A stretch of 64,000 nt of DNA from Polyangiales bacterium. Lineage in GTDB: Bacteria; Myxococcota_A; Polyangia; Polyangiales; Polyangiaceae. The stretch spans positions 131,530 to 195,529 of the forward strand of contig JBBRLQ010000017.1 of assembly GCA_038231275.1 (NCBI GenBank), given 5' to 3'. Position 1 is the first letter of the stretch, and each line of letters opens with the position of its first letter. Positions 50,783-64,000 of this stretch are shown piece after piece. The position numbers and the translations under genes were made by a program. The notes under the pieces were generated by a model that saw only the letters and a list, made by a program, of their open reading frames with translations, ran no database searches and had not been told where the DNA came from.

Positions 50783-53700
50783 ATGACCGAGAGCAAGACG
50801 CAGGACGCCGACACGGAATCGCCGCCGAAGGAACGTCCCGCCACGACGAAGGAAAACGGCGCGACTCCCGTTGCGAACACGGCGCCGGAGTCGGCGTCGG
50901 GATCCGCGACGGAATCAGAGTCGGCGTCGGACTCGGAGTCGGCGTCGGACTCGGCGTCGGAGTCGGCGTCCGAGTCGGCATCGGAGTCGACGACGGAGGC
51001 CAAGGGACCGCCGTTGCTCGCGCGAGGGAATCCGCTTCGACGGATGCGCGGCGGGGTGACCGCGGCGGTAGGCGGCGTGGCGGCGTTCCTCTTGATGGCC
51101 CACAACGGGCAGCTTTCGTTCGGCGTGCCGCTCGGCCTCGTCTTCGTGCTCGTGGCGTCGTGGGGGATCATGGATCTCCTCGGCACGTTCGACGACGACG
51201 AGAAGGACGGGATGGTCCTCGCGAGCACGACGACGCTCACTGCGATCCAAGGGCCCGTCGCGTTCACGGTCCTCTCGTTCGGCGCGTTCGCCGGCTGCTT
51301 GTGGGGCGGGCAAGGCGGCGCCGGGCCGCAGATCATGTGGGGCGTCCTCGTCACGATGACGTTCCTCATGTTCGTGACGGGCCTCTTCCGCGTCGGCCAG
51401 GCGCTCGGCCCGTGGGCGAAAGACGAGCTCGGCCTCGATCGCCCCATCCTCAAGCGTCACGGCTTCTGGGTCGTCGCGGTCGGCGCGTTCCTCTACCTCC
51501 CGATGATGGGGAGCTACTCGCTCTGGGATCCGTGGGAGACGCACTACGGCGAGGTCGCGCGTGAGATCCTCGCGCGCGACGACTGGATTTCGCTCTGGTG
51601 GGCGCAGGATGGCTGGTTCTGGTCCAAGCCGATCTTGAATTTCTGGATGCAGGCGCTGTCGATGGCGTCGCTCGGCACGCACTACAAGAGCGACATGATG
51701 ATGACCGGGCTGCTCGGTCACACGGCGCACCCGGAGTGGGTCGTGCGCGCGCCCAACGTGCTGCTGACGATCCTCGCGATGTACGTCATGTACAAAGGCG
51801 TCGCGAAGGTGTTCGGGCGGCGCGCGGGGATGCTCGGCGCGTTCGTCCTCGCGACGACGCCGGACTGGTTCTTCCTCGCGCACCAGACGATGACCGACAT
51901 GCCGTTCGTCGCGGCGATGACGGCGGCGATGGGCCTCCTCATGCTCGGCCTCAACACCGACGAGGAGCAGCGCACGCGCCTCTACCAGCTCGACGTGGGC
52001 TCGCTGAAGCTCCGGCTGAACGGCTGGCATCTCGTCTTCGGCACCATCCTGGTCTGCGCGATCCCGCAGATCCTCTACCTCGCGTCGCGCAACCTCGAGC
52101 TCGTCATCCATGGCAATGGGCCGCACGGCTTCCGCGTGCACTACGACGAGTTCCGAAGCGGCTCGGCCGGCAACTGCGGCCTGCCCGGCAACGAGGCGTG
52201 CAACCTCTCGAACCCGGCGTCGATCCCCAAGGGCATCGTCCCCCACCCCACCGGCGTAGGCCCCAACGCGATGCGCCTCTTCGGTGCGTTCGAGCCGATC
52301 CTCCAGGCGATCGTGTGGTCGCTGGTGGCGGGCGGCCTCCTCTACATCAACTGGGGCGAGCGGCGGATTCGGCGCCTCTATTACATCGCGGCCTGGTTTT
52401 TCGCGGCGATCGCGACGATGGGAAAGGGGCCGGCGGGCTTCGGCATCCCCATCATCTGCGTGTTCGCATACCTCGCGACGAAGAAGCGCTGGAGCGAGCT
52501 GCTCAAGGTCGAGATGCTGAGCGGCCTGCTCGTCATCCTGTGCGTCGCGATCCCGTGGTGGGTCGCGATGTACGTGCGGCACGGTCCACCCTTCACCGAC
52601 CGCATCATCTTCCACGACATGTTCAACCGCGCGTTCAACCACGTTCACGACACGAACGAAGGGGACGACACGAGCTTCCGCTTCTATTTGTGGCAGCTCG
52701 GCTACGCGCTGTTCCCGTGGACCGGGCTCGCGCCGCTGGGGCTCGTGTGGTGGGCGCGCCGCGGCGACTCGGCGGATCACGGCCGGGGTGACGCCTCGGT
52801 CTTCCTCGCGATGTGGTTCGTCTTCGGCTTCGCGCTGTTCTCGTTCATGGGGACCAAATTCCACCACTACATCTTCCCGGCGGTCCCGCCGGCGGCGATG
52901 CTTGTGGGCGTCGTCCTCAGCGACATGATCGGCGATCGCAAGCTCACGCAGCCCGGGCGGCTCGCGGTGTACGTCGCGGGGCTCGTCGCCGGCGCGGCGC
53001 TCGCGGTGGCTGGCGTCACGCGGCTCATGCCTGGATCGTTCTTCGGCACCAAGGATGGCGCGCTCGCGCCTGCCAGCATGCCGATCGGCCTCGCGCTCCT
53101 CGCGACCGGCCTCGTCGGCGTGGTCTTCTGCATGCGCGCGCTGCGTGCGACCTCCGAGGAGCCCGCCGCAGCTACGACCTCGCCCGACGACGAGCGGCGA
53201 CGCATGCACGAGCGGCTGATGATCGGCGCTTCGACCGTGGCAGGCGCGTTCCTGCTCATCTTGGTCGTGCGCGATCTCGCGATCAAGCCCGAAGGCTCGG
53301 ATCAGCCCGGCGCGATCCGCCTGCTCCAGCTCTTCACGTACAACTACCGCCGCTCGTGGCCCGACTCCCTCGACTTCAGCGCCGCGCTCACCGGCTTCGG
53401 CGCGATCGCGATCCTCGCCCTCTTCGCCCTCGCGGTCGCCAAGATCCGGCACCACGCGGTCGCCGCCATGCTTGCGCTCGGCGCGGTGTGGGCGCTGTGG
53501 GGCGTCGACGTCTACATGATCAAGACGGCGCCGCACTGGGGCCAGCACGAGGTCATCGAGGCGTACTACGTCAACCGCCAGTCGAACGAGGAGCCGCTCG
53601 TCGCCTACCAGATGAACTGGAAGGGCGAGAACTTCTACACGTCGAACCGCATCCCGGCGTTCGTGTCGAGCGGAGCCAACTTCACGAATTGGATGAAGAC

Positions 53701-53851
53701 CCAGCGCGAGAAGGGGGTCAAGGTGATGTACTTCGTCACGGAGCACAGCCGCACCGGAGGGCTCCGCAGCGAGGTCGGCGCGAAGGCGTACCGCGAGGTC
53801 ACCGATCGCGCGCTCTGCAACAAATTCGTCCTGGTGCGAGCCGAGCTCTAG
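50783..53851 (+). CDS. ArnT/PMT-like (GT39/GT83) polytopic membrane glycosyltransferase
   Basis: LWDPWETHYGEVAREIL, FWSKPILNFW, WVVRAP, QTMTDMP, ATMGKGPAG, TKFHHYIFPAVPP; many TM helices. Confidence 0.85.
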   Translation: MTESKTQDADTESPPKERPATTKENGATPVANTAPESASGSATESESASDSESASDSASESASESASESTTEAKGPPLLARGNPLRRMRGGVTAAVGGVAAFLLMAHNGQLSFGVPLGLVFVLVASWGIMDLLGTFDDDEKDGMVLASTTTLTAIQGPVAFTVLSFGAFAGCLWGGQGGAGPQIMWGVLVTMTFLMFVTGLFRVGQALGPWAKDELGLDRPILKRHGFWVVAVGAFLYLPMMGSYSLWDPWETHYGEVAREILARDDWISLWWAQDGWFWSKPILNFWMQALSMASLGTHYKSDMMMTGLLGHTAHPEWVVRAPNVLLTILAMYVMYKGVAKVFGRRAGMLGAFVLATTPDWFFLAHQTMTDMPFVAAMTAAMGLLMLGLNTDEEQRTRLYQLDVGSLKLRLNGWHLVFGTILVCAIPQILYLASRNLELVIHGNGPHGFRVHYDEFRSGSAGNCGLPGNEACNLSNPASIPKGIVPHPTGVGPNAMRLFGAFEPILQAIVWSLVAGGLLYINWGERRIRRLYYIAAWFFAAIATMGKGPAGFGIPIICVFAYLATKKRWSELLKVEMLSGLLVILCVAIPWWVAMYVRHGPPFTDRIIFHDMFNRAFNHVHDTNEGDDTSFRFYLWQLGYALFPWTGLAPLGLVWWARRGDSADHGRGDASVFLAMWFVFGFALFSFMGTKFHHYIFPAVPPAAMLVGVVLSDMIGDRKLTQPGRLAVYVAGLVAGAALAVAGVTRLMPGSFFGTKDGALAPASMPIGLALLATGLVGVVFCMRALRATSEEPAAATTSPDDERRRMHERLMIGASTVAGAFLLILVVRDLAIKPEGSDQPGAIRLLQLFTYNYRRSWPDSLDFSAALTGFGAIAILALFALAVAKIRHHAVAAMLALGAVWALWGVDVYMIKTAPHWGQHEVIEAYYVNRQSNEEPLVAYQMNWKGENFYTSNRIPAFVSSGANFTNWMKTQREKGVKVMYFVTEHSRTGGLRSEVGAKAYREVTDRALCNKFVLVRAEL
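50888..50990 (+). repeat. Coding hexamer repeat encoding ESASDS-type linker
   Basis: gagtcggcgtcg/gactcg units. Confidence 0.8.
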
Positions 53852-54666: not shown

Positions 54667-56541
54667 TTGTCCACGTCCAGCTCCAAGCCCATCCCCGCGA
54701 TCAACCGCTACAAGGCCGACCTCCGCGAGCTCTTCTTCCTCGCGTTCGAGCAGTTCGGCCTCACCGACATCCTCGGCAAGGCTCCGTTCGACGCGTGGGG
54801 CGAGGAGGAAGTTCGCCAGTCGGTCACCGAGTGCTACCGCTGGGTTCGCGAGGTCTCGGGCCCGCTCAACGCCATCGGCGATCACGAAGGGTGTCGCATC
54901 GAGGGCGGCGCCGTCCTCACGCCGACCGGCTTCAAGGACGCGTGGAAGAAGCTGTACGAGGCGGGGTGGAAATCGATCGGCGTCAGCCCCGAGTTCGGCG
55001 GCGCCGGCGCGCCCAAGGTCGTCGTCCTCTACATCGAGGAGCTCCTCTGCGGTGCGAACACGGCCTTCACGATGTACTCGGGCCTGACGTACGGCGCCTC
55101 CGAGGTCATCGAGTCGTTCGGAACGCACGAGCAGCAGCAGCTCTTCTGCGCGCGCATGTTCGGCGGAAAGTGGGGCGGAACGATGTGCCTCACCGAGCCG
55201 CAGGCCGGCAGCGACGTCGGCTCTTCGCGCACCACCGCGACGAAGAACGCCGACGGCACGTACTCGATCCGCGGGACCAAGATCTTCATCTCCGCGGGCG
55301 ATCATGATCTCGCAGAGAACGTCGTGCACCTCGTCCTCGCGCGCGTCGAAGGCGCGCCGGCGGGCACCAAGGGGCTCACGCTCTTCATCGTCCCCAAGAT
55401 CCGCACGAACGCCGACGGCACCCTCGCCGGCTCGAACGACGTCACCGTGGGCGCGATCGAGCACAAGATGGGCATCAACGGCTCCGCCACGTGCGTGCTC
55501 AACTTCGGCGAGAACGGCAAATGCGTCGGCGTGCCGGTCGGCGGCGACGCGAAGCTGAACCAGGGCATGAGCCAGATGTTCAAGATGATGAACGGCGCGC
55601 GCATCGCCGTCGGCATGCAGGGCTACTCCGTCGCGTCGAGCGCGTACCTGAACGCGCTCGACTACGCGCGCGAGCGCAAGCAAGGCGCCTCCATCACGCA
55701 CTGGAAGGACGCGACCGCCCCGCGCGTCCCGATCCTCGAGCACGCCGACGTGCGACGCATGCTCCTCGACATGAAGTCACGCGTCGAGGGCATCCGCGCG
55801 CTCGCGGTGAAGCTCGCCCGCCACCAGGACACCGTCGACGCGCTGACCAAGACCGGCGGCGACGACAAGGACATCGCCTACCACCAGGGTCAGGTCGATC
55901 TGCTCGTGCCGCTCGTGAAGGCGTACGGCTCCGATCAGGGCTTCCGCGTGTGCGAGACCGCGATCCAGACCTACGGTGGCGCCGGCTACACGCGCGACTA
56001 CCCCGTCGAGCAGTACTGCCGCGACGCCAAGATCTTCAGCATCTACGAAGGCACGAACCACATCCAGGCGATGGATCTGGTCGGCCGCAAGCTCGGACAG
56101 GCGGGCGGCGCGAACCTGCAGGCGTTCCTCGGCGACGTCGGCAAGTTCGTCGCGAAGAACGGCGAGCATCCTACGCTCGGCGCCGCCGTGAAGAGCCTCG
56201 GCGCGGCGGCGCAAGCGATCGGCAACGGTTCGATGAAGCTCCTCATGTGGTTCCAGTCGGGCAACCTCGCGCTCGTTCCGCTGTCGGCGAACCGCTTCCT
56301 CGAGATGATGGCGGAGCTCTCCGTCGCGTGGGTGCTGCTCGACGGCGCGGTCATCGCCGAGGCGAAGAAGAAGGGCCTCGCCGAGGGCAGCCCCGATCTG
56401 GCCTTTTACACGGGCAAAACCCACGCCGCGCTCTATTACGCGCGCAACGTGCTGCCCGGCGTCGAGCACAAGGCCAAGCTGATGGACGGCGAGGACAAGA
56501 CCCCGCTCGACATCCCCGACGCCGCGTTCGCGACCGTATAA
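54667..56541 (+). CDS. Acyl-CoA dehydrogenase (long FadE5-like form)
   Basis: AAGGAGG RBS before TTG; TMCLTEPQAGSDVG, GTKIFIS, EHKMGINGSAT, YARERKQG, GGAGY, IYEGTNHIQAMDL. Confidence 0.95.
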   Translation: MSTSSSKPIPAINRYKADLRELFFLAFEQFGLTDILGKAPFDAWGEEEVRQSVTECYRWVREVSGPLNAIGDHEGCRIEGGAVLTPTGFKDAWKKLYEAGWKSIGVSPEFGGAGAPKVVVLYIEELLCGANTAFTMYSGLTYGASEVIESFGTHEQQQLFCARMFGGKWGGTMCLTEPQAGSDVGSSRTTATKNADGTYSIRGTKIFISAGDHDLAENVVHLVLARVEGAPAGTKGLTLFIVPKIRTNADGTLAGSNDVTVGAIEHKMGINGSATCVLNFGENGKCVGVPVGGDAKLNQGMSQMFKMMNGARIAVGMQGYSVASSAYLNALDYARERKQGASITHWKDATAPRVPILEHADVRRMLLDMKSRVEGIRALAVKLARHQDTVDALTKTGGDDKDIAYHQGQVDLLVPLVKAYGSDQGFRVCETAIQTYGGAGYTRDYPVEQYCRDAKIFSIYEGTNHIQAMDLVGRKLGQAGGANLQAFLGDVGKFVAKNGEHPTLGAAVKSLGAAAQAIGNGSMKLLMWFQSGNLALVPLSANRFLEMMAELSVAWVLLDGAVIAEAKKKGLAEGSPDLAFYTGKTHAALYYARNVLPGVEHKAKLMDGEDKTPLDIPDAAFATV

Positions 56542-56550
56542 ACTACCGGG

Positions 56551-57435
56551 ATGCGTCGCGCACTCCTCGTGCCTTGGCTCGTCGTCGTGTGCTCCTGCAA
56601 GGGGCCGATGGCGAAGATCGAGGCGGTTCGCGACGCGCTCGTTTCCGGTGACGACGCAGCGCTGACGAGCGCGACGAACGGCGTGCCCGCGTGCAAGGAG
56701 CCAGCCCCCGGCGCGGAGCAAGCGTGCCTCGGAGCGATCGCGGCAGCGCTCGGCTCCAAGTCGGGATTCAACGGAACGTCACCAGACCAGGCGTCCGCGG
56801 CGGCCGTCGCCCTCGTCGTCGCCCGCGATCGGCACGGCGAGTGGGCGACGGCGGCCGACGTGTGGCTCTCCGCGATTCGAACCGGGAAGGGAGCGGGCAT
56901 CGACGCGCTCCGGGTCGCGGTGGCGCGGCAGATGGCGGCGAGCGCGCCCGACGTCGGCAAAGCGATCGACGACGACAAGGACACGCGGCCGCTCCTCAAG
57001 GCCGTCGCCGCCGCGATCCCCGGCGCGTGCACCACGTACGCGTCGCTGGGTGCCGGCGCGAACGAAGCGACGCTCTCTCTCGCGGCGATGCCCGATCACT
57101 CCGCGTGCGTGCAGAAGGACCTCGGCCGCAAAGACGGGCCCGGCGGCACCTACGGGCGCGGGCTCCTCCGTGCGGCGGAAGGCGCCGCGGCGATTTGGAA
57201 GGACATGGCGACCGCGCTTCGTGACGGGCTCGGGCTCACGGGCGGCGCTGCGCGGCCCGTCGTCGACACGAAGCTCGCGGCAATCGACGAGGCGACGCGA
57301 AAGCTCGCGCTGAAGAAGGTGCCGCGCGACGACGGCTGGATCAAAGAGATGACCGACTTACACGGCGACGCCGGCGTGCCGTTCGATGGCAAGCCGGCCG
57401 CGAAGGCCGACGCGGGGGCGACGCTTCGTCGTTGA
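56551..57435 (+). CDS. Hypothetical lipoprotein
   Basis: Lipobox VCSC; Ala-rich helical; GC3-rich codons. Confidence 0.7.
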   Translation: MRRALLVPWLVVVCSCKGPMAKIEAVRDALVSGDDAALTSATNGVPACKEPAPGAEQACLGAIAAALGSKSGFNGTSPDQASAAAVALVVARDRHGEWATAADVWLSAIRTGKGAGIDALRVAVARQMAASAPDVGKAIDDDKDTRPLLKAVAAAIPGACTTYASLGAGANEATLSLAAMPDHSACVQKDLGRKDGPGGTYGRGLLRAAEGAAAIWKDMATALRDGLGLTGGAARPVVDTKLAAIDEATRKLALKKVPRDDGWIKEMTDLHGDAGVPFDGKPAAKADAGATLRR

Positions 57436-57543
57436 CCGTCAAACGGTTGGCGCACGACGTCATCGCGACGACGCGGGACCCGAACAAACTGCCCGCATTT
57501 CCAGCTCGCGGCGTCGGCACGGGGCTTGATGAGGAGTCTTGCG

Positions 57544-58290
57544 ATGAGCAAGACAGAGTGGGACTACACCGACCTCGCCGCCGCCTACCTCAAGCGCCCG
57601 GACTACGCGGACTCCGCGATCGACGCCATGCTCGCGAAGGCGGGTGTCGGCGCCGGCGCGCGCGCGTGTGACGTCGGCGCAGGCGTCGCACACCTCACAC
57701 GAATGCTCGAGCACCGCGGGCTTCACGTCGTCGCCGTCGAGCCGAACGACGCCATGCGCGGCTTCGGCAAGACGCGCACGCGCGCCGCCGTGTGGTTCGA
57801 CGGGACGGGCGAGGCGACGGGCCAGCCCTCGTCGGCGTTCGATCTCGTGACCTTCGGGTCCTCCTTCAACGTCACCGATCGCCAGAAGGCGCTCGTCGAG
57901 ACCGCACGCATCGCCCGCTCGCGCGGCTGGTTCGCATGCATGTGGAACCACCGCGACCTCGAAGACCCGCTGCAGGCCGCCATCGAACGCACGATCTCGG
58001 AGCGTGTCGACGGCTACGACTACGGGACGCGACGCGAGGACCAGACCACCGAGATCGACAGGAGCGGCCTCTTCGGGGAGGTCACCAAGATCGAAGGGAA
58101 GGTCGTCCACGCGCAGAGCAAGATGGAGTGCCTCGAGGCGTGGCGCTCGCACGCGACGCTCCAGCGCCAGGCCGGCAAGGCCTTTCCTGCGGTCGTCGAG
58201 GCGATCGCCACCGTGCTCGATCGCCACCCGTCGCCCACCGTCCTCATCCCGTACACGACGCGGATCTGGGTCGCCCAGCTGAAGGGATAA
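57544..58290 (+). CDS. Class I SAM methyltransferase, Cj1419-like (phosphoramidate O-methyltransferase candidate)
   Basis: WDYT, RPDY, DVGAG, VEPNDAMR, VTFGSSFNV, CMWNHRDLEDP, GTRREDQ, YTTRIW. As recalled, these motifs match C. jejuni Cj1419. Confidence 0.85.
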   Translation: MSKTEWDYTDLAAAYLKRPDYADSAIDAMLAKAGVGAGARACDVGAGVAHLTRMLEHRGLHVVAVEPNDAMRGFGKTRTRAAVWFDGTGEATGQPSSAFDLVTFGSSFNVTDRQKALVETARIARSRGWFACMWNHRDLEDPLQAAIERTISERVDGYDYGTRREDQTTEIDRSGLFGEVTKIEGKVVHAQSKMECLEAWRSHATLQRQAGKAFPAVVEAIATVLDRHPSPTVLIPYTTRIWVAQLKG

Positions 58291-58295
58291 GGTCG

Positions 58296-58835
58296 ATGCC
58301 CGGCGTCATCTGGATCACGGGACTCTCGGGCGCCGGCAAGACGACGCTCGCGCGGCGGGTCGTGGGCGCGCTTCGCCAGGACGCGGCGTTCGGCGAGCGT
58401 GCGATCGTTCACGTCGACGGCGACGAGATGCGCGCAGTGTTCGGCGACGATCTCGGGCACGGCCCCGCCGACCGCCGCGCCAACGCGTGGCGAATCGCGC
58501 GCACCTGCGAGCTCCTCGTACGCCAGCAGTGCTTCGTCGTCTGCTCGACGATGAGCATGTTCCAGGAGATCTATGCGCACAACCGCAGCCAGCTCTCGCC
58601 GTACATCGAGATCCTCCTCTCGGTGCCCATGGAGGTGCTCCGCGCGCGCGATTCGAAGGGCATTTACCGAGGTGGCGCGCGCAACGTGGGCGGCGTCGAT
58701 CTCGAGGTGACCTGGCCAAAGACGCCCGATCTCGTGCTCTCGAGCGAGGGCGACGGCGATCTGGCCCGCAATACAGAGCTCGTCGTTGCGCGCGCGCACG
58801 CGATGGTCGGCGACGCCGCGCGGAGGAGCGCGTGA
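58296..58835 (+). CDS. Adenylyl-sulfate kinase (CysC)-like protein; probable cytidine diphosphoramidate 3'-kinase (Cj1415-like)
   Basis: VIWITGLSGAGKTT, DGDEMR, STMSMF, RDSKGIY, NVGGVD; operon context. Confidence 0.85.
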   Translation: MPGVIWITGLSGAGKTTLARRVVGALRQDAAFGERAIVHVDGDEMRAVFGDDLGHGPADRRANAWRIARTCELLVRQQCFVVCSTMSMFQEIYAHNRSQLSPYIEILLSVPMEVLRARDSKGIYRGGARNVGGVDLEVTWPKTPDLVLSSEGDGDLARNTELVVARAHAMVGDAARRSA

Positions 58836-61201
58836 CGCTCGTCTTCGGGACCAAGGCCGAGACGCTTGCGCGCGTGGCGCCACGTGTCACGACCGCGGTC
58901 GTGCCTCCTCGGGTCGCCTTCACCGTCGCGCGATGGCGCGCGGAGCGGGAGCTGGTCCTCGCAGGGGCTGCGTGCCTCGGTAGGCGCGTCGTCGTTCGGA
59001 GCTCCGCGCGCGGCGAAGACGGCCCCCGCGCGTCGATGGCCGGTGCGTTTCTCTCGATCGCGGACGTCGACCCTGCCGACGCGCGCGCCCTCGCGTTCGC
59101 GATCGACCAGGTCGTCGCGTCGTACGCGAAGGGCAATGCCCGCGCGCCTGCCGCCGACGATCAGGTGCTCGTGCAGAAGCAGGTCGAGGACGTGGCGCTC
59201 GCCGGCGTCCTCTTCACCAGTGATCTGGACACGCTCGCGCCGTACTACGTCTTCTCGTACGACGAGTCGGGGAAGACCGACACCGTCACCGGGGGCCATG
59301 AGGGGCGCGTCGCGACCGTCGTACGCTTCAAGCGCGCGCCCACTCCGGTGCGCGACGCCCGCTTCGCGCCGGTCTTCGCCCTCGGCGCCGAGCTCGAAGC
59401 GCTCTTCGCGACGCCGCATCTCGACATCGAGCTCGCCATCGACGCCCGCGGCACGCTCCATCTCCTTCAGGTGCGGCGCCTTGCGAGCGGCAGCCACGTC
59501 CGGCCTCCGAGCGGGCCGGCCCTCGAAGAGCAGCTCGAGAAGGTCGCCAAGAAATGCGAGAAGCTCGCCCTCCCGCACCCCGATCTCGCGGGCGAGGGCA
59601 CGGCGTTCGGCGTAATGCCCGACTGGAACCCCGCCGAGATGATCGGCAAAAAGCCGCGCCGCCTCGCGTTGTCGCTCTACAAGGAGCTGATCACCGACTC
59701 GATCTGGGCCTACCAGCGCGACAACTACGGCTACCGCAACCTGCGCAGCTTCCCACTCCTCGTGTCGCTCATGGGGCACCCGTACGTCGACGTGCGCGTG
59801 AGCTTCAACTCGTTCGTCCCCAAAGATCTCGATCCGCGCATCGCCGACAAGCTCGTCAGCCACTACCTCGCCGAGCTCCGCCGAAGACCCGCCGACCACG
59901 ACAAGGTCGAGTTCAACGTGGTCTACACGTGCGCCTATCCCGGCCTCTCCGAGCGCATCCAGGAGCTCGCCGCCCACGGATTCCGGCCCGGCGAGATCGA
60001 TCGCATCAAGTTTGCGCTGCTCAAGCTCACCAACGGGATCCTCGATCCGGCGCGCGGCCTCTACGCGAAGGATCTCACGAAGGTCGACGAGCTCTCGGCC
60101 CGCCACGCGCGGACGATGTCGAGCGAGATGCCGATCCTCCACAAGATCTACTGGATCGTCGAGGACACCAAGCGCTACGGCACCCTCCCCTTCGCGGGCC
60201 TCGCGCGCGCGGGGTTCGTCGCGATGCAGATCTTGAAGGGCCTCGTCGCCCTCGGCATCTTCACGCCGGCGGATGAGGCCGTGTTCATGCAGTCGCTCGA
60301 GACCGTCTCGAGGCGCATGGCGGGTGACGTCGCGCGCCTCGCGACCGGCGAGGTCTCGCGGGAGGCGTTTCTTGCGGAGTACGGACATCTCCGCCCGGGG
60401 ACGTACGACATCCTCTCGAAGCGCTACGACGAGGACTGGGGCACCTACTTCGGACAAATTGCGTCGCAGGCGCACGCGCCGGAGTCTGCGCGGCCGTTCG
60501 TCCTTCGCCCCGAGCAACGCGACGCGCTCGCCGCAGTCCTGATCGAAGAGGGATTCGAGGTCGGGCCCGACGCGCTGCTCGCCTTCATGCGAGGCGCCAT
60601 CTGCGGCCGCGAGCACGGCAAATTCGTGTTCACCAAGAGCCTGAGCGACCTCCTCGTGCTCCTCGAGCAGCTGGGCGCGCGCTTCGGCGTCTCACGCGAC
60701 GATCTCTCGCACCTCGACATCGGCGCCGTCCTCGCGCTCTACGCGGAGCTCGGCGCGGAGGACGTCGACGCCGTGCTGGTCGCCGACATCGCGCGTGGAA
60801 AGCGCGCACACGCCGTGACGCGGGCGCTCCGACTCCCCCACCTGATCGCTCGCCCCGAGGACGTCTACGAGTTCACGCTTGGTGACGCCGAGCCGAGCTT
60901 CGTGACGCTCGGGCGCGTGCACGCCGAGACGCTCGCGGAGGCGGAGCTCGGGCACGTCGACCCGGCCGGCAAGGTCGTCTTCGTGCGGAGCGCCGATCCC
61001 GGCTACGACTGGCTCTTCGCGCGCAAGATCGCGGGGCTCGTCACCGAGCACGGCGGCGCCAACTCGCACATGGCGATCCGCGCCGCCGAGCTCGGCGTGC
61101 CCAGCGTGATCGGGTGCGGCGAGCAATTGTTCGACGGGCTGTCCCGCGCGAAGGTGATCGAGATCGACTGCGCGAACCGCGTGGTCAGAAAGGTGGCGTG
61201 A
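58832..61201 (+). CDS. PEP-utilizing/ATP-grasp enzyme; probable L-glutamine kinase (Cj1418-like)
   Basis: FGTKAETL, VRSSA.GED..SMAGAF, MPDWNPAEMIG, HDKVEF, GHLRPGTYDI, SADPGYDWLF, GGANSHMAIRAAELG (phospho-His). Confidence 0.9.
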   Translation: MTLVFGTKAETLARVAPRVTTAVVPPRVAFTVARWRAERELVLAGAACLGRRVVVRSSARGEDGPRASMAGAFLSIADVDPADARALAFAIDQVVASYAKGNARAPAADDQVLVQKQVEDVALAGVLFTSDLDTLAPYYVFSYDESGKTDTVTGGHEGRVATVVRFKRAPTPVRDARFAPVFALGAELEALFATPHLDIELAIDARGTLHLLQVRRLASGSHVRPPSGPALEEQLEKVAKKCEKLALPHPDLAGEGTAFGVMPDWNPAEMIGKKPRRLALSLYKELITDSIWAYQRDNYGYRNLRSFPLLVSLMGHPYVDVRVSFNSFVPKDLDPRIADKLVSHYLAELRRRPADHDKVEFNVVYTCAYPGLSERIQELAAHGFRPGEIDRIKFALLKLTNGILDPARGLYAKDLTKVDELSARHARTMSSEMPILHKIYWIVEDTKRYGTLPFAGLARAGFVAMQILKGLVALGIFTPADEAVFMQSLETVSRRMAGDVARLATGEVSREAFLAEYGHLRPGTYDILSKRYDEDWGTYFGQIASQAHAPESARPFVLRPEQRDALAAVLIEEGFEVGPDALLAFMRGAICGREHGKFVFTKSLSDLLVLLEQLGARFGVSRDDLSHLDIGAVLALYAELGAEDVDAVLVADIARGKRAHAVTRALRLPHLIARPEDVYEFTLGDAEPSFVTLGRVHAETLAEAELGHVDPAGKVVFVRSADPGYDWLFARKIAGLVTEHGGANSHMAIRAAELGVPSVIGCGEQLFDGLSRAKVIEIDCANRVVRKVA

Positions 61202-61202
61202 T

Positions 61203-61832
61203 GTGCGAACCGTTCTCGTGACGCAGCGGCTCGTCGAAGAGAGCGCGTACCCCGAGGTGCGTGAGGCGCTCGACGTGCGCTGGGGGCGATTCTTCGCGGA
61301 GCTCGGGCTCCTTCCGGTGCCGATGGCCTACGAGATCGCTCCCGATCACTACGCCTCACTGCAACCTGCGGCGGTCGTCTTGACCGGCGGCAACGACATC
61401 GTCGCGTGCTCCGACACGCCCACGTCGCGACGCCGTGACGCGTACGAGCGCCGCGTCCTCCACGCCGCCGGTGTTCACGATTGGGCTATTTTTGCCGTGT
61501 GCCGCGGCGCGCAGCTCCTCGCCGCCGAAGCGGGCGCGGCGCTGCGCGAGATCGCGGGCCACGTCGGCGCCGAGCACGCGCTCGAGGTCGTGCCTGGCGC
61601 GCCGTTCGCCCCCGAGCTCCAGAACGTGGGCCGTGTGAACTCGTTCCATCGCTGGGCCCCCGACGGCCCGCTTCTGCGCGGCTGGTCGGTCTGCGCGCGC
61701 GGTGACGACGGCGGTGTCGAGGCGATCGCGCACGCGTCGCTGCGCGCCCTCGGCGTGATGTGGCATCCCGAGCGGTACGAGACGCCGCGTCCCTGCGATC
61801 TCGCGCTCGTGCGCGCGGTGGTGGGCTCGTGA
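61203..61832 (+). CDS. Class I glutamine amidotransferase/peptidase C26; probable gamma-glutamyl-CDP-amidate hydrolase (Cj1417-like)
   Basis: VTQRL...YPEVREALDVRW, LTGGND, CRGAQ, VNSFH, MWHPER (Cys-His-Glu triad). Confidence 0.88.
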   Translation: MRTVLVTQRLVEESAYPEVREALDVRWGRFFAELGLLPVPMAYEIAPDHYASLQPAAVVLTGGNDIVACSDTPTSRRRDAYERRVLHAAGVHDWAIFAVCRGAQLLAAEAGAALREIAGHVGAEHALEVVPGAPFAPELQNVGRVNSFHRWAPDGPLLRGWSVCARGDDGGVEAIAHASLRALGVMWHPERYETPRPCDLALVRAVVGS

Positions 61833-62560
61833 GGGCCATCGTCCTCGCTGCCGGTCAGGGCGCACGCCTGCGGCCGCTCACCGACGATCGTCCCAAGTGC
61901 ATGGTCGCCTACAAGGGCATCACGCTCATCGACCGCATCCTCGCGAGCTTGCGGACGGCGGGCATCTCCGACATCGTCGTCGTGAAGGGCTACAAGGCCG
62001 ACTCGCTCCACCCGCCCGGCGCGCGGACCTTCGTGAACGAGAACTACGCCGCCGGCAACATGGTCGCGACCTTGTTCACCGTCGAAGACGAGATCGAGGG
62101 CGACGTCGTCATCACGTACTCCGACATCGCCTACGGCCCCAGCGTCGTGCGAAAGCTCGCGGAGTCCGACGCCGACATCTCGATCGTCATCGACCTCGCC
62201 TGGCGCGAGCTCTGGCAGAAGCGTATGAGCGATCCCCTCGCCGACGCCGAGACGCTCAAGCTAGACGGGCGCGGCCGTGTCCGCGAGCTCGGAAAGAAGC
62301 CGTGGTCGTACGCCGACATCGAGGGGCAGTACATCGGCCTCATCAAGCTCACCGCCCGCGGCGCCGAGCGCTTGCGTGCACTCTACACGCGCCTTGATCG
62401 GACCGCGCTCTACGACGGGCAGCCGTTCGAGAAGATGTTCATGACGAGCCTCCTTCAGCGCGCCATCGACGCGGGCATCGAGGTTCGGGCGGTGCCGATC
62501 CGCGGCGGCTGGATCGAGATCGACGCGCCGAGCGACTTGGAGATCGACGTCGCCGTCTGA
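61829..62560 (+). CDS. Phosphocholine-cytidylyltransferase-family NTP transferase; probable CTP:phosphoglutamine cytidylyltransferase (Cj1416-like)
   Basis: LAAGQGARLRPLTDDRPKCMV, YSDI, DPLADAETLK, IEGQYIGL, MTSLLQ, WIEID. Confidence 0.9.
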   Translation: MRAIVLAAGQGARLRPLTDDRPKCMVAYKGITLIDRILASLRTAGISDIVVVKGYKADSLHPPGARTFVNENYAAGNMVATLFTVEDEIEGDVVITYSDIAYGPSVVRKLAESDADISIVIDLAWRELWQKRMSDPLADAETLKLDGRGRVRELGKKPWSYADIEGQYIGLIKLTARGAERLRALYTRLDRTALYDGQPFEKMFMTSLLQRAIDAGIEVRAVPIRGGWIEIDAPSDLEIDVAV

Positions 62561-63792
62561 GGTGCGGTGGCGTTCGGCGGAGGCTTCAGGCCCCCGCCGA
62601 GCGGGCGCGGCAGTGGCAGAAGCGCGCGGATCGCGCGAGGAAGCACCGCGCGGGCGAGGTGGCGATAGGTGTAGCCCCACCGCGTGAGCATGCCCCGGGC
62701 GGCCTCGATAGGCGCCTGGGCAAAGGCGCCGCGCTCGGCCTTCGTCGGCGCGTGCATGAGGAGCGGCGCGAGGAGCCGCGCGTGCCAGCGCGCGCGGTCG
62801 TAGCCATGGTCGCGGCGGAACGCGGCGAGCAGCCCCTCGAGCACGTAGCGATCGAAGGCGTCGAGCGCCTCGTCCGTCGTATCGGCGGCCTGCCGAGTGT
62901 GTGCGCTGCTGAAGCCGTTCTGCCGCTTCACCGCCATTTGATCGCCCCAGTACGCGAGGCCGCCCCACGTGCTCGCGAGGAGCCGCTCGTCCCACGCGAT
63001 CCCCAGCCACTGCGCGAGGCGCGTCATCGTCGCGCGCGGTGCGTCGTGGAGATCCTCGAGCCGCACCTCGTAGCGCCGCATCGCGCGTCGATCGAACAGC
63101 TCGCTCCACCCCGTGAGCTGGTGGCGGTAGAGCGCGTGGTAGCCGCCGGTCCGCGCCATCCTGGCGTAGGTCGCGCGATCGTCTTGCCCGAGAATGCCCG
63201 CGAGGTCGCGGTTCTTCCGGAGGTACGACGCGAGCGATCGGACGGGATCCCGCACCGTTCCGATCGCGACCATCTCTGGGAAATCTTCGAGCGCCGCACC
63301 GATACCGTCGTAGGCCTCGGGGGAGTGGAGGTGGTAGAGGAGGACCTTCTTCTTCGACACGTCCTCGCCGCGCGCCTCGGCGTACGCGAAGTGCGCGGCG
63401 AGGAAGAAGTCCCGCCGGCGGATGGCGCCAGGAGCGCGCGACGGCAACCGAGCAAGCAGCGCGTCCGTGAAGCGGTCGGCGTCGACGAACAGCGGCGTGT
63501 CCTTCGCCGGCCCCAGATCGGCGAGGCCCTCGAACCAGCGATCCGCGCGTCCGTCGAAGCACGACGGGTTCCAGGCGATGAACTTCGCGACCATCTCCTC
63601 GCGTGTGGCGGCGTTGGCGATGTCAGCCCATTGACGGTGGTGGAAGGAATTGACACGCGTCGCTGGGAACGTGAGCACCTCGGGGTGCCCATCGAAGAGG
63701 CTGTGCAGGAACACCGTGCCGCTTCTTCCCCAGAAAAACAGCGCGGCGACGCGAACGTCGGGGGCGGCGATGCGTGCGGCCTCGAATGGCAT
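62455..63792 (-). CDS. Sulfotransferase-family protein
   Basis: 5'-PSB loop GRSGTVFLHSLFDGHPEV, 3'-PB motif VRDPVRSLAS, VRLEDL..P..TM..LA.WLGI; overlaps the preceding gene convergently. Confidence 0.8.
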   Translation of the reverse strand: MPFEAARIAAPDVRVAALFFWGRSGTVFLHSLFDGHPEVLTFPATRVNSFHHRQWADIANAATREEMVAKFIAWNPSCFDGRADRWFEGLADLGPAKDTPLFVDADRFTDALLARLPSRAPGAIRRRDFFLAAHFAYAEARGEDVSKKKVLLYHLHSPEAYDGIGAALEDFPEMVAIGTVRDPVRSLASYLRKNRDLAGILGQDDRATYARMARTGGYHALYRHQLTGWSELFDRRAMRRYEVRLEDLHDAPRATMTRLAQWLGIAWDERLLASTWGGLAYWGDQMAVKRQNGFSSAHTRQAADTTDEALDAFDRYVLEGLLAAFRRDHGYDRARWHARLLAPLLMHAPTKAERGAFAQAPIEAARGMLTRWGYTYRHLARAVLPRAIRALLPLPRPLGGGLKPPPNATAPQTATSISKSLGASISIQPPRIGTARTSMPASMAR

Positions 63793-63853
63793 GTGCGGTG
63801 CTTATACACGCCGCATGCCGCGGGGCGCCGCACGTGGGGCGCGCGCGGATCAA

Positions 63854-63929
63854 TCCGATTTAGCTCAGTTGGTAGAGCAGGCGGCTGTTAACCGCCGGGT
63901 CGCTGGTTCGAGTCCAGCAGTCGGAGCCA
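63854..63929 (+). tRNA. tRNA-Asn (GTT)
   Basis: Acceptor TCCGATT/AGTCGGA, D-arm AGCTCAGTTGGTAGAGC, anticodon GTT at 63887-63889, TTCGA T-loop, encoded CCA; 76 nt. Confidence 0.97.
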
Positions 63930-64000
63930 CATCTGCAAATGCGCAGGCGCGCCTGACCCGTTGGTGAACTCACCGCGGGCAGTTTCCGCGAGAACGCGTC

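Follow-up and report, generated by a model that had tools for sequence, protein, structure and literature searches.

A predicted Campylobacter-type phosphoramidate donor operon in a myxobacterium, adjoined by a sulfotransferase-fold protein as candidate phosphoramidyl transferase

The closest described system to the one reported here is Campylobacter jejuni's pathway to O-methyl phosphoramidate (MeOPN), in which, according to the excerpts of the reports cited in this text, the enzymes Cj1415 to Cj1418 convert glutamine, ATP, and cytidine triphosphate (CTP) to cytidine diphosphate (CDP)-phosphoramidate 3′-phosphate (PMC11800397, PMC6429109). In these excerpts, Cj1419 and Cj1420 are without an assigned function while genetics identifies Cj1421 and Cj1422 as transferases (PMC11800397), MeOPN sugars are described as Campylobacter-only (PMC6429109), and the glutamine kinase is called C. 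jejuni-specific (PMC9561416). Our literature search, which was judged by titles and the starts of abstracts and confined to papers available without subscription, returned a single proposal of an MeOPN cluster outside Campylobacter, a preprint whose excerpt puts forward a candidate cluster in the Cobalt Borg from structure prediction (bioRxiv 10.1101/2024.11.05.622173); it found neither the pathway in myxobacteria nor a link to sulfotransferases. Here, we describe a locus of this kind in the 64 kb at the end of contig C17 in the genome of an uncultured myxobacterium, and we refer to this whole stretch of 64,000 nucleotides as the window. A five-gene operon at positions 57544-62560 encodes counterparts of Cj1419, Cj1415, Cj1418, Cj1417, and Cj1416, and a sixth gene, convergent to the operon, encodes a sulfotransferase-fold protein. 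We regard it as likely that the six genes make up a self-contained phosphoramidate-transfer cassette. Its donor pathway is a member of the known C. jejuni kind; what is new is the sulfotransferase-like candidate transferase and the stand-alone setting.

The identity of the donor pathway follows from a comparison with the C. jejuni locus (L059), which turned up when species genomes were scanned with an alignment of 16 sequences of the glutamine-kinase homologue. Its genes were identified through the NCBIfam models NF004508 (Cj1418 type, 1173.1 bits), NF045546 (Cj1417 type, 331 bits), NF004041 (Cj1415 type, 290.6 bits), and NF058596 (“O-methyl phosphoramidate transferase”). In forward tblastn searches, the window proteins matched all six C. 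jejuni MeOPN-region genes and no other genes of L059, and in reverse searches of the whole genome the window genes were the sole or best matches for all five C. jejuni counterparts. Global identities amount to 42.7% for the glutamine kinase, 29.9% for the hydrolase, 37.9% for the kinase, 45.5% over 242 columns for the cytidylyltransferase (L059:5845-6606), and 44.6% for the methyltransferase (L059:2135-2896). Given these five reciprocal best matches, at 30-46% identity, the first-pass annotation's call of homology to the Campylobacter MeOPN genes holds.

Under closer inspection, the individual proteins agree with this assignment. The glutamine-kinase homologue, present as a single copy in the genome, matches NF004508/PRK05849 with 910.7 bits against a cut-off of 501, the match covering positions 8-788 of 789, and thus belongs to that family, whereas models of phosphoenolpyruvate (PEP) synthase match its swivel domain only. 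In the alignment with its C. jejuni counterpart, His746, within the motif GGANSHMAIR, pairs with His737, which we take to be the phosphorylated residue. The cassette kinase is the only PF01583 match in the genome (91 bits); it passes the cut-off of NF004041/PRK05541 (137.8 bits against 127) and fails that of TIGR00455 (91.8 bits against 138.7), a model on which the Cj1415 counterpart in L059 scores 126.9 bits. For the hydrolase, the reverse search gave no other match in the genome, its position in the cassette is conserved, and both the cysteine of CRGAQ and the motif WHxE line up with the C. jejuni protein such that the Cys, His, and Glu residues are kept. The P-loop and the G-x-G-x-R motif are likewise among the aligned catalytic motifs. 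The libraries searched contain no dedicated model for the Cj1416 type, and membership was judged by reciprocal best match, which the cytidylyltransferase gave with an E value of 4.9e-57 (runner-up 7.8e-5 in the whole genome); its nearest solved structure by sequence is LicC (1jyk, E 3.4e-12). The methyltransferase is both the sole genome match of its Cj1419-type counterpart in the reverse search (45% identity, E 3e-49), completing a reciprocal best match, and linked to the cassette. A sequence search of the PDB with four cassette proteins returned generic relatives (PEP synthase, LicC, adenosine 5′-phosphosulfate [APS] kinases, and GATases) and no structures of Cj1415 to Cj1418.

The five genes lie as close together as the first-pass annotation had stated, all on the forward strand and with the domain families it named (Table 1). 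Since the intergenic spacings are 5, -4, 1, and -4 nt, with two GTGA start/stop overlaps (one of them joining the cytidylyltransferase gene to the preceding hydrolase gene) and GGAGG-type ribosome sites, including a GAGGAG just 5′ of the methyltransferase ATG, we conclude that they form one translationally coupled operon. The G+C content at third codon positions (GC3) is 0.83-0.89 in the five assigned frames, which are therefore the coding frames. A scan of positions 56400-64000 gave no promoter-like sites and two terminator-like sites, against 2.7 expected.

What the first-pass annotation overlooked is the sixth gene. The AlphaFold model of its product (predicted local distance difference test [pLDDT] 86.6, predicted template modeling score [pTM] 0.85) gave 17 Foldseek matches at E ≤ 0.001, and the top ones are all sulfotransferases, led by the sulfotransferase domain of CurM (4gbm, E 7.9e-7) and followed by TPST2, olefin synthase, and Stf9. 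Nearly invariant alignment columns hold the motifs GRSGT (residues 22-26) and RDPVRSLAS (residues 181-189), which correspond to the 5′-phosphosulfate loop and the 3′-phosphate motif of sulfotransferases. It is the sole PF13469 (Sulfotransfer_3) gene in the genome and adjoins the sole PF01583 gene. Among the NCBIfam models, no family matched the protein at E ≤ 0.001, and it does not fall into the NF058596/DUF2972 family. From its gene linkage and fold, the protein is probably a phosphoramidyl transferase that uses 3′-phospho-CDP-amidate, a donor resembling 3′-phosphoadenosine 5′-phosphosulfate (PAPS); sulfate transfer from PAPS is predicted not to be its reaction. The 3′ ends of the sixth gene and of the cytidylyltransferase gene have 106 bases in common (62455-62560), and the residues encoded in the overlap (409-445, the last ~37) are disordered in the model; at 394-428 aa, the closest homologues are shorter.

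Table 1. Genes of the cassette and neighbouring features, in window coordinates
Feature	Coordinates	Strand	Start codon	Domain match or position
S-adenosylmethionine-dependent methyltransferase (Cj1419 counterpart; Cj1420 more distant)	57544..58290	+	ATG	Methyltransf_11 E 1.2e-10
APS-kinase-like P-loop kinase (Cj1415 counterpart, cytidine diphosphoramidate 3′-kinase)	58296..58835	+	ATG	APS_kinase E 1.2e-25
L-glutamine kinase homologue (Cj1418 family), 789 aa, ATP-grasp + phosphohistidine swivel	58832..61201	+	GTG	PPDK_N E 8.2e-10, PEP-utilizers E 2.7e-15
Class-I glutamine-amidotransferase-like hydrolase (Cj1417 counterpart, gamma-glutamyl-CDP-amidate hydrolase)	61203..61832	+	GTG	Peptidase_C26/GATase E 5e-18
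Nucleotidyltransferase (Cj1416 counterpart, CTP:phosphoglutamine cytidylyltransferase)	61829..62560	+	GTG	NTP_transf_3 E 1e-13
Sulfotransferase-fold protein, 445 aa, candidate phosphoramidyl transferase	62455..63792	-		Sulfotransfer_3 57.3 bits (cut-off 27)
tRNA-Asn(GTT)	63854..63929	+		61 bases beyond start of sulfotransferase-like gene
1022-aa protein	50783..53851	+		weak PMT_2 (GT-C glycosyltransferase) E 1.5e-8; 3.7 kb upstream of the cassette

Related genomes allow the kinase and the sulfotransferase-like protein to be compared with bona fide sulfation enzymes. A sister species (G001) has the same six-gene arrangement, and there, too, the sole PF01583 gene and the sole PF13469 gene are both in the cassette. 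We found no canonical APS kinase in either the window genome (G000) or G001, which therefore have no obvious source of PAPS; the window's genus has no other visible one. Two other Myxococcota genomes (G026 and G428) likewise carry a sulfotransferase-like gene inside their cassettes, and both encode canonical APS kinases elsewhere (226-236 bits on PF01583, versus 85-97 for the cassette kinases) as well as canonical sulfotransferases. Set against this natural control, the kinase and the transferase of the cassette form a divergent couple.

We next turn to the whole family, for which we compiled 83 loci around glutamine-kinase homologues (the window, G001, G026, and 80 named loci), so that this gene is present in all 83 by design. 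Open reading frames (ORFs) were clustered all-against-all, and hidden Markov models (HMMs) of the clusters were then used for further families; a second iteration of the kinase HMM drifted to general P-loop proteins (144 matches) and was discarded. The loci include relatives and are not independent, and the counts are given without a test statistic. By clustering, the cytidylyltransferase is found in 72 of the 83 loci, the amidohydrolase-type hydrolase in 70, the methyltransferase in 68, and the kinase in 51. Because the same set recurs around the glutamine kinase in 83 loci, the cassette is no chance assembly of domains. HMM searches detected sulfotransferase-like ORFs in 31/83 loci from many phyla (34 copies). 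No copy is farther than 3.7 kb from the glutamine kinase, in flanks of up to 10 kb, and 30 of the 34 share its direction; often the genes are ordered sulfotransferase-like gene, kinase, methyltransferase, glutamine kinase, hydrolase, cytidylyltransferase. ORFs of the DUF2972 type occur in eight loci, all from Campylobacter or Helicobacter, and not one of the 83 loci has both types. Genes similar to CysQ and inositol monophosphatase, members of the PAP-phosphatase family, are present in 13 loci, which fits the removal of the 3′,5′-bisphosphate by-product of a PAPS-like donor; such genes stand inside or beside the cassette, for example, at L067:6267-7010, L032:12938-13684, and L015:4907-5755.

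We also asked whether the MeOPN transferases of Campylobacter are themselves sulfotransferase-like. The DUF2972 group and the cassette proteins share an invariant RDP...S motif. Three results count against a kinship of the two groups. First, hhalign aligned only 21 columns around RDP (probability 17%, E 0.0014), a match that is insufficient for homology, and we therefore compared structures. Second, the NF058596 relative that was modelled, from a Helicobacter locus (L030:3896-5119, pLDDT 89.0), matches this family at E 7e-19 but with 68 bits against a cut-off of 600; the alignment includes a bona fide 734-bit member. Third, Foldseek returned no match for this model at E ≤ 0.001, and its best hits, SULT7A1 and 3-O-sulfotransferases, stood at 2-4e-3. 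In exhaustive VIA-align comparisons of the same model, however, 21 chains of the sulfotransferase superfamily ranked first (Z 10.3-6.9, 173-235 residues aligned), and generic P-loop kinases followed from rank 22 on (Z ≤ 6.6). Weaker relatives of the protein contain DUF2972 and lack a Pfam sulfotransferase domain. Taken together, there is moderate support for the view that phosphoramidate transfer in Campylobacter is also carried out by a sulfotransferase-type fold. The same Helicobacter sp. locus has six consecutive DUF2972-type ORFs and fragments upstream of its cassette (L030:178-5119), which look like transferase paralogues in a row, some of them broken.

By orthology to the C. jejuni enzymes, the Cj1416-like enzyme would join the product of the glutamine kinase to cytidine monophosphate (CMP) from CTP, the Cj1417-like hydrolase would remove glutamate to leave cytidine diphosphoramidate, and the Cj1415-like kinase would add a 3′-phosphate to give 3′-phospho-CDP-amidate, a close analogue of PAPS. 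For the two further steps we look to linkage and fold: the sulfotransferase-fold protein would pass the phosphoramidyl group to a hydroxyl on an acceptor whose genes lie elsewhere, with release of cytidine 3′,5′-bisphosphate, and the Cj1419-like methyltransferase would O-methylate the transferred group to yield an MeOPN-type decoration. It is tempting to generalize this to a second, widespread class of phosphoramidyl transferases, namely sulfotransferase-fold enzymes that use 3′-phospho-CDP-amidate rather than PAPS, of which Cj1421/Cj1422 would be a divergent branch and which in the myxobacterial cassette would put (methyl) phosphoramidate on a non-capsular acceptor. On this broader proposal, to which we give an even chance, P-N decoration would be common to bacteria in general and no speciality of Campylobacter.

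Further observations weigh against these readings. The sulfotransferase-like gene stands outside the operon and converges on it. In 52 of the 83 loci there is no such gene in the stretch covered, many of these loci being truncated; of the 46 loci flanked by 8 kb or more on each side, 17 carry a sulfotransferase-like gene, four have DUF2972, and 25 have neither. The hydrolase reaches 129 bits on NF045546, short of the cut-off of 250, and is therefore not filed as an equivalog. The window genome encodes CysD and so has APS, from which the cassette kinase might in principle form PAPS. The excerpt on the C. jejuni knock-outs states that loss of Cj1419 or Cj1420 left the capsule unchanged, and the role of the methyltransferases is thus unproven (PMC11800397). 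Finally, the source is known here from genes alone, in an uncultured genome that is 94% complete.

Which acceptor the cassette serves is the point at which an alternative fares best: it might decorate a small molecule, a lipid, or a protein, as in natural-product tailoring or protein modification, instead of a surface glycan. This agrees with the genomic setting, since in the window, G001, and G026 the cassette stands alone, flanked by no glycosyltransferase, sugar-nucleotide, or export genes. Upstream of the operon, the window encodes an acyl-CoA dehydrogenase along with a protein of 294 aa that matches no family, neither of them glycan-related. The window-type sequence cluster of sulfotransferase-like proteins comprises 17 loci (window and G001 included), and of the eight whose flanks were scanned, six have unrelated neighbours and two (L062 and L088) have sugar genes. 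The best structural matches, in addition, act on intermediates bound to acyl carriers (CurM, olefin synthase) or on protein tyrosine (TPST), though structural nearest neighbours say little about the acceptor. On the other hand, capsule sugars are the only known acceptors, and many other lineages hold the cassette in glycan islands, with DegT aminotransferases in 19 loci, epimerases in 16, and AsnB-like amidotransferases in 10. We consider a non-glycan acceptor possible but doubtful.

Less probable still is that the donor pathway is real but that the sulfotransferase-like protein next to it is either an ordinary sulfotransferase working with PAPS or unrelated to the pathway, with the true transferase encoded elsewhere or beyond the contig end. 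Such a reading would account for the convergent orientation and the overlap with the last gene of the operon, for the score above the Sulfotransfer_3 cut-off and the retained motifs for binding a 3′-phosphonucleotide, for the contig end just 208 bases past the gene, and for the 52 loci that lack one. It sits poorly with the search of G000 and G001 that found no canonical APS kinase, with the fact that the only PF13469 gene in 9.3 Mb nevertheless adjoins the cassette, and with a linkage conserved in 31 of the 83 loci across many phyla. A search of the genome with PF11186 (DUF2972) gave no hit, though the control matched in no genome either. In sum, we think this explanation unlikely. That the locus serves sulfation or another nucleotide pathway, with a true CysC as its kinase, a large enzyme that phosphorylates something other than glutamine, and no P-N bond, is highly improbable: the generic Pfam names (APS_kinase, PEP-utilizers, Sulfotransfer_3) and the presence of CysD fit a PAPS reading, but the kinase passes the Cj1415-type model and not TIGR00455, it scores far below the canonical APS kinases of G026 and G428, the large enzyme matches the Cj1418 model over its full length with 911 bits, and the five genes are conserved together.

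Turning to the host, the window belongs to a genome of 9.28 Mb in 164 contigs. The valyl-tRNA synthetase encoded in the window shares 81% identity with a Polyangiaceae protein and 73% with proteins of Pendulispora and Labilithrix, so that the source is rightly called a myxobacterium, as first proposed. The 1022-aa protein in Table 1 is the sole glycan-related gene seen nearby. On the other side, the contig ends at 64000, 71 bases past the tRNA-Asn gene; the initial statement that no capsule genes adjoin the operon thus stands for the upstream side, whereas downstream the contig ends 208 bases past the sixth gene. The contig of G001 (L006) likewise ends ~140 bases beyond its sulfotransferase-like gene, and a repeat or an integrated element may lie beyond the tRNA-Asn contig end. 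A recent horizontal transfer of the cassette is unsupported, its GC and GC3 matching those of the surrounding genes; the neighbouring tRNA-Asn and a patchy distribution leave room for an old acquisition. In the lineage, the glutamine-kinase family is rare, being found in three of 41 relatives and in five of 401 sampled genomes of the phylum (G000 counted in both). As a whole the family is large: 6626 among 8000 scored candidates reach E ≤ 1e-10, several of them named “glutamine kinase” by the Joint Genome Institute (JGI), and relatives occur in at least 596 species genomes (596 of the 600 pattern matches listed). Named carriers include Campylobacterota, Bdellovibrionota, Planctomycetota, Acidobacteriota, Alpha- and Gammaproteobacteria, Lachnospiraceae, and Spirochaetes, among others. 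Among those in culture, Catenovulum agarivorans DS-2 (L074) and Anaerotruncus colihominis DSM 17241 (L080) have sulfotransferase-like genes, and Marinobacter oulmenensis DSM 22359 (L084) and Natronincola peptidivorans DSM 18979 (L018) show none in the stretch covered. The implication of the first-pass annotation that this chemistry is nearly confined to Campylobacter is accordingly wrong at the gene level.

Several loci of the census depart from the common architecture. In two Myxococcota genomes, G322 (L095:894-4025) and G306 (L096:4628-7684), the glutamine-kinase homologue carries an N-terminal NTP_transf_3 domain (~1020-1040 aa); the kinase was not found nearby, and a weak methyltransferase match is present in L096 only. 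This is a different variant of the pathway. Elsewhere, an APS-kinase-like domain is fused to the N terminus of the glutamine kinase, giving proteins of ~970-1220 aa (P0063, P0117, L044:8663-12325, L065:7447-10392, L066, L073, and L067); the hosts are soil Proteobacteria, Acidobacteria, and a Chlamydiales genome, and tandem sulfotransferase-like genes are often present. Two very large ORFs with a sulfotransferase-like domain (L009:14918-18424, ~1170 aa, and L010:13720-18048, ~1440 aa) follow directly downstream of their cassettes.

To our knowledge, the enzymes that transfer and methylate MeOPN have not been characterised in vitro. With one methyltransferase, one candidate transferase, and no competing PAPS system visible, the myxobacterial cassette offers a cleaner test case than C. 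jejuni with its paralogous pairs. If the sulfotransferase-fold reading is true, a new reaction is added to the superfamily, and “sulfotransferase” annotations beside such cassettes would be wrong in many cases. For myxobacteria, the cassette points to an unrecognised modification of the cell surface or of a metabolite, of possible relevance to phage, predator-prey, or kin recognition.

How, then, does the locus compare with the systems already known? The Cobalt Borg cluster is another set of Cj1416-1418-like genes outside Campylobacter; it differs in lying in the glycan region of an archaeal extrachromosomal element, and the preprint's excerpt mentions no 3′-kinase, methyltransferase, or sulfotransferase-like partner (bioRxiv 10.1101/2024.11.05.622173). 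With the MeOPN pathway of C. jejuni NCTC 11168, the window shares one-to-one counterparts of Cj1415 to Cj1419 in which the catalytic motifs are conserved; also in common is the order of the core, from kinase (1418) through hydrolase (1417) to cytidylyltransferase (1416). In contrast to C. jejuni, it has one methyltransferase instead of two (Cj1419/Cj1420), its 3′-kinase is upstream rather than downstream, and the kps/capsule context is missing in a soil-type myxobacterial host; a Pfam-recognisable sulfotransferase-like protein is present, and no NF058596/DUF2972 transferase (Cj1421/Cj1422) was found. That family occupies the same place in the locus, excludes sulfotransferase-like genes, and shares with them the RDP...S motif and, in the modelled relative, a sulfotransferase-like fold; yet the window protein has no significant NCBIfam match, and the profile similarity is limited to the 21 columns. 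The PAPS system of CysC, sulfotransferases, and CysQ offers the parallel in chemistry: in both cases, an enzyme of the APS-kinase family would supply a 3′-phosphorylated nucleotide donor to a transferase of the sulfotransferase fold, and CysQ-like genes accompany a share of the cassettes (13/83). However, neither the kinases nor the sulfotransferase-like proteins of the cassettes come close in score to their canonical counterparts in the same phylum, and the predicted donor carries a phosphoramidate on CMP rather than a sulfate on adenosine monophosphate.

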